Shown here one piece after another: positions 56,339 to 59,270 of a stretch of DNA of 64,000 bases; the stretch's first letter is position 1, and each line of letters starts with the position of its first letter. The notes beneath the pieces are model-generated. The model did not search any database. It had not been told where the DNA came from and was given only the letters and a program-made list of their open reading frames with translations. The DNA is from Promethearchaeota archaeon (lineage in GTDB: Archaea; Asgardarchaeota; Lokiarchaeia; Sigyniarchaeales; SOKP01), in the NCBI GenBank assembly GCA_016840085.1, contig JAEOTA010000088.1, positions 84,517 through 148,516 on the forward strand. Reading direction: 5' to 3'. A program made the position numbers and the translations under genes.

Positions 56339-56872
56339 ATGGCTCCTGACGAAGAAAGTAATAAGGAAATGGAAGAAAAATTAGAAAAGGAAGAACCTTC
56401 TGAAGAAATCGTTGAAGAGCTTGAAGAAGAAGAAGGAGAAAGAGAATTAGATACAGAAGCAGAGCTAGATAGATTAAGGTTTAAATATAGAGGTTACACT
56501 TTAGAGGAATTAAAGAAGATGAATATGGATCAATTCATTCAGTTATTACCAGCTAGATCAAGACGTTCCTTAAAAAGAGGATTGCCTCCAAGACAAAAAA
56601 AATTGCTTGAAAGGTTAAGACGGGCATATCGAGCTAAAAAAAGAGGTAAAGATTTAATTACAAGAACACATATCCGCGATATGATAGTTTTTCCTGAAAT
56701 GTGTGGTCTTACAATTTCAATTTATAATGGAAAAGATTATATACCTGTTGAAGTTCGCCCAGAAATGATTGGTCATTATCTTGGGGAATTTTCTTTAACA
56801 AGAAGAAGAGTACAACACGGTTCACCAGGAATAGGAGCCACACGAAGTTCCAAATATGTTCCACTAAAATAA
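56339..56872 (+). CDS. rps19: 30S ribosomal protein uS19 with acidic N-terminal extension
   Basis: [49 protein letters not shown]. Confidence 0.97.
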
Positions 56873-56904
56873 ATTAAGATAATAAATGATTGAGATGAAA
56901 AAAA

Positions 56905-57384
56905 ATGCCTAACTGGGATTATTCATTCATTGAACAAAAATACGATAAAGAAAGGTTAGCAAAAGCTTCAGGTCGCGATCTCAGAATAAAACCCAAACAT
57001 GCTCGAGAAATCTGTGCTGTAATAAAAGGAATGAATGTAGATCGAGCTAAAAGATTTCTTGAAGCTGTAATTAACTTGAAACAATCAGTCCCATTTAGAC
57101 GACATAAGAAAAAACTTGCCCATAAAAAAGATTTAAAACAATTTAAATGGTACGCAGGAAAGTACCCTCAAAAAGCTGCAGCAAGAATCTATGAAATCCT
57201 TTCTTCTGTAGAATCTAATGGTGAATATAAAGGATTGGATATTGATATGTGTAAAATTATTCACGCAGCAGCACATAGAGGAAGAATAATAAAACGATAT
57301 ATTGAACGTGCTCGTGGACGTAGCACTGCATATTTTAAACATCTTACTCATGTAGAACTTGTAATTTACGAATTTCCAAGTTAG
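56905..57384 (+). CDS. rpl22: 50S ribosomal protein uL22
   Basis: KHAREIC, VPFRRH, GKYPQKAA, RARGR, THVELV. Confidence 0.96.
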   Translation: MPNWDYSFIEQKYDKERLAKASGRDLRIKPKHAREICAVIKGMNVDRAKRFLEAVINLKQSVPFRRHKKKLAHKKDLKQFKWYAGKYPQKAAARIYEILSSVESNGEYKGLDIDMCKIIHAAAHRGRIIKRYIERARGRSTAYFKHLTHVELVIYEFPS

Positions 57385-57474
57385 GTAAAATTATAATAAA
57401 TTATAATAATAAAATTAAAAGAATAATAAAAAATGAATTGTATTACAAATGAAAGTATTGCATTGGTGATTTAA

Positions 57475-58309
57475 TTGCCACTAGTGAAAAATTTTATAGA
57501 ACAAGGGATTAAATTGATGCAAATAAACGAATATTTGCGATCAGAATTAGTTAGAGCAGGATTCGCTGGCGTTGATGTACAAAAGACACCGCTTGGAGTG
57601 CGTATTACCCTAAGAACCTCAAGACCAGGTTTGGTCATTGGTAATTATGAGTGTCAATTCGACAATATAGCCAAAAGGGGGAAAACGCATCCAAGAGATC
57701 ACGGACGTTCTTCAAGATCGATTTGGGCTGGAAAATTAATTTCTGTCTAAGAAGTTAAGCCTATTGCCCCAGATCGAAGTCGAAGAGGTTTCTAATCCTG
57801 ATTTAAATGCTCAGATCATGGCGGAAAGATTGGCTTACAGTTTAGATAGGGGGCGTCACTATCGTAGAGCAGGTTACTACATCCTTCGCAAGATAATGGA
57901 CTCTGGTGGTGCTCTTGGCGCTGAGATTCGAATTAGTGGAAAAGTCACTAGTCAACGTGCTAGAACCCAAATATTTAGAGCAGGCACTATGACAAAAAGT
58001 GGCTTTCCTGCCCAAGAGGGTGTAGATAAGGGTGTAGCTCAATGTATTCAAAAATCAGGCGTATTGGGTATAATTGTAAAAATTTTTCACGCTGACACAA
58101 AGATGGGAGATGAAATAAAAATTAAAGAAGAACTCTTAAATCAAGCACAAGCAGAAGCTGAAGCCAAAATAGCTAAAACAAGAGCAGAGTATGTTATTGA
58201 GGAGGAAGAAACAGTAAAAAGTGAAGAAGATAGACAACTAATAGATGAAGTAGATGAAGAAGCTATTTCCGAAATTTCATTAGCTCCCGATAAAAATAAT
58301 GATAAATAG
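57475..58309 (+). CDS. rps3: 30S ribosomal protein uS3, three predicted exons: 57475-57644, 57676-57734, 57765-58309 (774 nt, 257 aa)
   Basis: Joined product reads ...[44 protein letters not shown]..., a canonical KH GxxG and uS3 sequence; position between rpl22 and rpl29. Confidence 0.9.
57645..57675 (+). other. Putative bulge-helix-bulge micro-intron 1 in rps3 (31 nt, frameshifting)
   Basis: Central helix UGGU(57639-42)/GCCA(57670-73), bulges AA^U and AA^A, inner hairpin UAUG..UGUC/GACA.UAUA; removal restores the frame. Confidence 0.82.
57735..57764 (+). other. Putative bulge-helix-bulge micro-intron 2 in rps3 (30 nt, contains in-frame stop)
   Basis: 9-bp inner stem 57736-44/57750-58; strong exon-exon stem 57719-28/57766-76; exactly 7 nt (4+3) between stems on both strands. 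Confidence 0.78.
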
Positions 58310-58339
58310 ATTGGATAAAAATAATGGATATGATTAATC

Positions 58340-58543
58340 ATGGTTGATATATTAACTGCTGAAAAAATTAGAGAAATGGAAGAGAGGGAGGTAGAAAGAG
58401 CATTAGTTAATTTAAGAGAAGAATTAATGTTACTTTATTCAAATCAAACTGGTGGAGGAATTTCTGATAATCCATCTAAAGCAAAAATAATAAGAAAGCA
58501 AATAGCAAGAATTTTAACTGTGATGAATGAGGAAAAGCGATGA
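58340..58543 (+). CDS. rpl29: 50S ribosomal protein uL29
   Basis: IREM, LREEL, NPSKAKIIRKQIARILTV. Confidence 0.93.
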   Translation: MVDILTAEKIREMEEREVERALVNLREELMLLYSNQTGGGISDNPSKAKIIRKQIARILTVMNEEKR

Positions 58544-58854
58544 TTAATCCTAAATATTTAATATATCATGATTTAATTGGCATTCATGCATTCGCAAAGC
58601 TAAAATCAAAATCCATAGATATACAATTCTCTGATATAGGAATAATAATTGATGACACAAAAAATATATTAATTACTGAAAAAGGGAACAAAATTAAAAA
58701 ATATATTAAGAAAGATTATGTGTTTAGGTTTAAAATTCCAAAATATAAAAATGAAGATAATGAGTATTATTTAGAAGTTTATGGGAATAAAATAGTTGGT
58801 CATCCATTAAATAGATTAAGAAGCTTAAAAAAGAAGAGATGGGTAAAAAAATGA
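58540..58854 (+). CDS. rnp1: RNase P protein subunit Rpp29/Pop4
   Basis: INPKYLIYHDLIG, GIIIDDTKN, G.KIVGHP..RL; conserved position between rpl29 and rps17. Confidence 0.85.
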   Translation: MINPKYLIYHDLIGIHAFAKLKSKSIDIQFSDIGIIIDDTKNILITEKGNKIKKYIKKDYVFRFKIPKYKNEDNEYYLEVYGNKIVGHPLNRLRSLKKKRWVKK

Positions 58855-59204: not shown

Positions 59205-59270
59205 TTGGGGACTCGTAGAAAGCTTGGTAGGAAAAAGGTTTCTAAACCACGGACTAGTTACGGTGTGTAT
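59205..59270 (+). pseudogene. rpl14: 5' fragment of uL14 gene, truncated after ~22 codons
   Basis: Directly follows rps17 where rpl14 is expected; basic N-terminus MGTRRKLGRKKVSKPRTSYGVY, but the expected DNSGA motif is absent in all three frames downstream. Confidence 0.6.

Follow-up and report, generated by a model that had tools for sequence, protein, structure and literature searches.

The gene for the essential ribosomal protein uS3 of a Promethearchaeota archaeon (Lokiarchaeia, Asgard) is interrupted by two short inserts, and its mRNA very probably must be cut and rejoined. We consider it very likely that the first insert is spliced out of the uS3 mRNA as a BHB intron: EndA would cut at 57644/57645 and 57675/57676 and RtcB would join the exons. 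As a class, it resembles the mRNA intron of cbf5, but in a new gene and a new lineage. In the proposed mechanism, local folding of the uS3 transcript would bring four exon bases into pairing with four at the end of the intron, and this central helix would stack on an intronic hairpin, leaving two bulges of 3 nt. The two-subunit archaeal tRNA splicing endonuclease would cleave past the second base of each bulge, RtcB would ligate the exons with restoration of a Lys codon, and removal of intron 2 in the same manner would give a uS3 of 257 aa. Cleavage, ligation and the enzymes responsible are what we infer from the comparison of sequences. Published archaeal mRNA splicing within coding sequence rests on cbf5 (PMC2738675, PMC7714728). 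If the present reading is true, there is multi-intron mRNA splicing in archaea near eukaryotes, with a mechanism that has no relation to the spliceosome, and such an obligatory case in an essential gene would make mRNA a normal substrate of EndA in the lineage closest to eukaryotes. Intron 1 also provides a short testable substrate, together with natural alleles with and without it, for studying how such introns arrive and vanish.

Coordinates in this text refer to the window, which is the whole stretch of 64,000 nucleotides analysed, unless another sequence is named, and the features are collected in Table 1. The uS3 gene belongs to a ribosomal protein operon (uS19, uL22, uS3, uL29, Rpp29, uS17, and uL14) and was predicted as a pair of ORFs (57475-57750 and 57764-58309). 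The former matches positions 2-41 of the Pfam profile KH_2, and positions 42-61 are matched, in a different frame, by the 21 codons past the insert. The latter ORF carries the S3 C-terminal domain. Uninterrupted relatives have V-I-G-K-G-G-K-R-I at this site; in the window, Gly and Lys are separated by 31 additional bases, and intron 1 shifts the reading frame. When both inserts are removed, 257 codons with a single terminal stop are obtained, and the product is 95-96% identical to the uninterrupted uS3 of P0010 and P0012 from other metagenomes. By tblastn, one uS3 locus was found in the assembly (98.8% complete, 7.6% contamination, metagenome-derived). Exons 2 and 3 of intron-bearing alleles differ mainly at silent sites, like those of intron-free alleles (for exon 2, 289 synonymous vs 67 nonsynonymous codon differences), and by this measure the interrupted exons are under normal purifying selection. 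The gene is a phylogenomic marker and yet is stored as fragments for this genome.

Table 1. Features of uS3 in the window and of related inserts (a slash within a codon or motif marks the insert site).
Feature	Sequence	Position	Strand	Remark
Shine-Dalgarno-like GGTGA	Window	57465-57469	+	5 nt upstream of uS3 TTG start; spacing shared with non-ATG starts of intron-bearing relatives
uS3 exon 1	Window	57475-57644	+	TTG start; KH_2 profile positions 2-41
5' strand of BHB central helix	Window	57639-57642	+	Exonic; third base of Ile codon plus Gly codon
5' bulge	Window	57643-57645	+	Predicted cut 57644/57645, by EndA rule
Intron 1, 31 nt	Window	57645-57675	+	Splits Lys codon (AA/A) of G-K-G-G
Intronic hairpin h'	Window	57646-57669	+	Apical stem 57652-55 with 57661-64, 5-nt loop
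3' strand of central helix	Window	57670-57673	+	Intronic
3' bulge	Window	57674-57676	+	Predicted cut 57675/57676
uS3 exon 2	Window	57676-57734	+	59 nt; KH_2 profile positions 42-61
Intron 2, 30 nt	Window	57735-57764	+	In-frame stop; splits Met codon (A/TG) of E-M-P
uS3 exon 3	Window	57765-58309	+	Remaining KH domain, S3 C-terminal domain, acidic tail, stop
uS3 H-F/I inserts	L036; L052; L034; L056-L058	307-278; 7010-6981; 374-403; (none)	-; -; +; (none)
uS3 G-A/K-G-V-E insert, 32 nt	L032	2824-2855	+	BHB
uL14 insert, 29 nt	L059 (G021)	4901-4873	-	Perfect BHB; also L035
30-nt inserts of nitronate monooxygenase; AMP-binding enzyme; Ras-like GTPase; ACS/CODH beta	G000 (this genome), C88; C6; C24; C4	2612-2583; 14028-13999; 30582-30611; 202483-202512	-; -; +; +	Positions listed in this gene order

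By the established EndA rule, each bulge is cut between its second and third bases. The earlier note had proposed a near-canonical BHB at intron 1, and its central helix (U-A, G-C, G-C, and U-G), both bulges and the inner hairpin were all found at the positions that it gave; the MFE structure of 57615-57700 includes the central helix and the hairpin, and adds one U-A pair to the helix, extending it into the 3' bulge. Four of four central pairs are formed in the window and in 11 of the 15 distinct alleles described below, and three of four in the other 4 (93% of cells paired across the 15). The outer exon helix, described in the earlier note as weak, is so in every allele, consisting of one wobble pair followed by a mismatch (15/15). 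Class HBh' is defined by four central pairs plus one flanking helix (bioRxiv 10.64898/2026.10.13.758758), and intron 1 falls in this class, which is scored there as canonical, the flanking helix being the intronic h', which is present and covarying, while the exonic h is weak throughout.

The register could be chosen on the same basis. The earlier note had counted three registers allowed by the protein. There are in fact four, since register -1 also preserves the protein through a silent change of a Gly codon, and the three of them that are identical in DNA give an identical spliced mRNA and an identical circle. The choice of 57645-57675 by the BHB rule held, as this is the only register with at least three central pairs in 15/15 alleles (mean 3.73 pairs per allele, compared with 2.47 for the next best among the protein-preserving registers). 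In the window it has four pairs with an adjacent hairpin, and the others have two, three (without an adjacent hairpin) and zero. Cuts after the second bulge bases restore G-K-G-G in all alleles.

Folding calculations gave a mixed result. In the fold of 57625-57690, a check that the earlier note had suggested, the central helix has an ensemble probability of about 0.22, and the energy of a competing structure lies 1.6 kcal/mol below it; the region 57615-57700 is not unusually stable (z -0.76). When the insert was shuffled 5000 times with the exons fixed, 8.7% of the shuffles gave a 4-bp central helix, and 0.06% gave this helix plus an equally stable inner hairpin. A genome-wide scan for BHB structures yielded about 1000 clusters with the true geometry, and each of five decoy geometries gave about 1000 as well, so a de novo scan of the whole genome is unable to count introns; its first form had missed both uS3 introns because of the short middle exon. 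Since chance alone produces many BHB-like shapes in a genome so rich in AT, the weight of the argument rests on comparative data. The location of the insert in the most conserved motif, which the earlier note regarded as typical of introns, is true but is weak evidence, because inserts are most visible in conserved motifs and three other sites in uS3 are also used.

A contig from another sample spans 56687-58580 and contains both inserts with zero differences. A pattern search found inserts at the intron 1 site in 14 metagenome stretches and in 6 of the 154 genomes of the order, 5 of them GTDB genomes other than the present one. In total, 15 distinct alleles of 30-32 nt were compared with 42 insert-free loci; since the search pattern could recover only alleles with AA at the 5' junction, the conservation of these two bases follows from the search itself. 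In the alignment of intron 1, 90% of cells are paired and two-sided changes are seen in 7 of the 12 pairs. The covariation score is 0.46 compared with 0.21 after shuffling (0/500) and at most 0.13 with slid partners, where the shuffle counts overstate significance and are not probabilities because the alleles are kin. In the outer central pair, an intron base is matched with the silent third position of an Ile codon in the exon, and this pair is found as A-U (5), U-A (5), U-G (2) and C-G (1). Short open frames in G062, G125, G147, G149, and G150 were rejected as introns, being attributable to contig ends, an N gap or a misjoin.

The alleles of intron 1 resemble each other more than chance would give (median pairwise score 0.64 vs 0.32 for shuffled ones), which suggests one origin. 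On the tree of uS3 exons the carriers are not monophyletic (6-8 changes; AU p about 1e-42), and one DNA contig of 98% identity, a single contig of low depth, keeps intron 2 and lacks intron 1 precisely. A single gain followed by repeated precise loss, or spread by recombination, may account for this history; on the basis of a single-gene tree, both fit.

Could the insert be kept in the mRNA, with the ribosome skipping 31 nt by translational bypass or by programmed frameshift stimulated by the hairpin? The conserved hairpin right at the junction would suit such an event, whose class is expected to show either a constant frame change or matched codons across alleles. The alleles, however, have lengths of 30, 31, and 32 nt, which would require three different events, and an in-frame stop is present in all four of the 30-nt alleles, so that no single frameshift rescues them. 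Matched take-off and landing codons are absent; an exon base and an intron base, each four positions ahead of its bulge, covary as expected of a substrate of EndA and not of a bypass signal; and the geometry of four pairs and 3-nt bulges recurs at unrelated sites. Because of the three lengths and the stops this explanation fails, and we regard it as very unlikely. Patchy distribution in the order and the contig lacking only intron 1 would also be seen if uS3 were a pseudogene or expressed in pieces and the insert a DNA scar, e.g., of a miniature mobile element. This fails on copy number and selection, as the locus is the only one for uS3 and its exons are constrained in the normal manner; moreover, the break lies within the KH fold, and the middle exon of 59 nt lacks its own start. 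As for a mobile element, the apical motif of the insert has four matches elsewhere in the genome, none obviously in an intron-like context, and target-site duplication is nil beyond two A bases. We therefore give this explanation very little credit. An artefact of sequencing or assembly could be thought of in a contaminated metagenome assembly, but replication in an independent sample and in 15 diverged alleles from many samples makes the chance of this practically negligible.

The remaining alternative keeps the same cut points and assigns them to a nuclease or ligase other than EndA and RtcB, or adds a helper for which the conserved apical loop would be the binding site. It draws on the weak exon helix, on the apical loop and its closing C-G pair, which are conserved beyond the known needs of EndA, and on the failure to find the catalytic EndA subunit in this assembly. 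RtcB is intact. The catalytic residues of EndA, which we take to be Tyr, His, and Lys as in the Methanocaldococcus enzyme, are incomplete in the sole EndA-family gene of the assembly; the catalytic His is missing from it, its counterpart in relatives is the paralogue with the weaker score, and we assign it as the structural subunit. Two EndA paralogues are present in 4 of 5 relatives, and G021 and G105, themselves carriers of intron 1, have a catalytic subunit that retains Tyr, His, and Lys. In the assembly of the present genome (G000), no match was found for the catalytic subunit, ATPase subunit A or a neighbouring conserved gene. Since neighbours of EndA are missing as well, this points to an assembly gap, which is the probable cause of the absence of the catalytic subunit. 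The intact catalytic subunit in intron-bearing relatives, the missing neighbourhood here and the fit of the EndA rule to the geometry at every site all stand against a different enzyme, which we consider highly improbable, and cleavage by EndA with joining by RtcB stays the preferred reading. Only 26 tRNA genes were detected in G000 by ARAGORN, most of them with introns and many of these in the D arm; at low threshold the program gave mostly noise.

Among known systems, the closest is the BHB intron in cbf5 pre-mRNA of Desulfurococcales and Sulfolobales, the splicing of which was demonstrated by cDNA and in vitro (PMC2738675). Intron 1 is likewise short, lies within a coding sequence, splits a codon of a conserved motif, has a BHB-like junction with predicted cuts past the second bulge base, would need the two-subunit EndA, and is lost in some lineages. 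Unlike cbf5, the host is uS3 of an Asgard lineage, there are several introns per gene (up to 3 per allele, at four sites of the family) and many host genes per genome, the distribution among close relatives is very patchy, and splicing is deduced from sequence. Homology to the cbf5 intron was rejected since the host is uS3 and the site is not the catalytic Asp codon of cbf5. The archaeal mRNA BHB introns named in PMC7714728 are that of cbf5 and one in the 5' UTR of Haloferax HVO_1309. The latter is, as predicted for uS3, an EndA-type intron in messenger RNA, but it is outside the coding sequence and its splicing is not needed for restoring a frame. Non-canonical BHB introns of archaeal tRNAs, including those of Asgard archaea, share the size, the HBh' geometry and repeated gain and loss, whereas the uS3 host is an mRNA; the study describing them treats tRNA genes only and does not mention mRNA (bioRxiv 10.64898/2026.10.13.758758). 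In the openly accessible literature that was searched, introns within coding sequences were not found to be described for Asgard archaea. A group I or II self-splicing intron was rejected because 31 nt compares with a ribozyme core of a few hundred bases, and an Rfam search of the insert gave no family match.

Other inserts extend the observation. Intron 2 has a relaxed central helix (2/4 pairs in the window) and a perfect inner hairpin of 9 bp, and a single register is possible. Across its alleles, 97% of hairpin cells are paired and a G-C of the central helix changes to A-U in two alleles. A register two bases upstream, with three pairs in 11/11 alleles, was rejected as it alters the invariant E-M-P in 9 of the 11 and breaks the perfect inner stem. 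Four insert sites are known in uS3 across relatives, and uS3 of G115 carries three inserts. At the H-F/I site near codon 8, the helix is perfectly Watson-Crick in five of six loci and contains a wobble in one; the 30-nt alleles there are in frame and stop-free, and are annotated as ten extra residues. The insert in uL14 has an apical 5-nt loop identical to the commonest loop of uS3 intron 1. Four more 30-nt inserts with the same geometry and with in-frame stops are present in G000. For the AMP-binding enzyme, the ACS/CODH beta subunit and the Ras-like GTPase, the two halves match consecutive parts of one Pfam profile, and for nitronate monooxygenase a profile match was obtained for the downstream half only. 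Because this census is based on paralogues, it finds only genes with paralogues, and at least four other cases exist. We think it likely that tRNA-type mRNA splicing is routine in this Lokiarchaeia family, in which tiny BHB introns would have colonised many coding genes and several sites of one essential ribosomal protein, with precise gain and loss among close relatives, and ribosome production would depend on the tRNA splicing endonuclease.

Two types of uS3 5' end were seen among relatives (window 57433-57477, loci L001-L089): ATG-Ser-Pro without a strong Shine-Dalgarno sequence, and GGTGA followed after about 5 nt by a mostly non-ATG start (TTG, GTG, ATC, ATT, TTA, or GTT). Intron 1 is present in 16 of 25 alleles of the GGTGA type and in 0 of 34 of the ATG-Ser-Pro type, these alleles being kin and not independent. 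The start of uS3 (57439-57477) was also considered as the site of a third intron, which was rejected since the alleles show no consistent BHB; the conserved element is a Shine-Dalgarno motif ahead of a non-ATG start and so is not an intron. In the same operon, uL14 stops after about 21 codons (window 59205-59270), and no match to the rest of uL14 or to the genes up to uS8 was found in the assembly. The join is spanned by contigs from two other samples, so the population may truly carry a rearrangement or insertion here. At its N-terminus uS19 has a long acidic extension (window 56339-56470), and uS3 ends in an acidic C-terminal tail (window 58150-58309).
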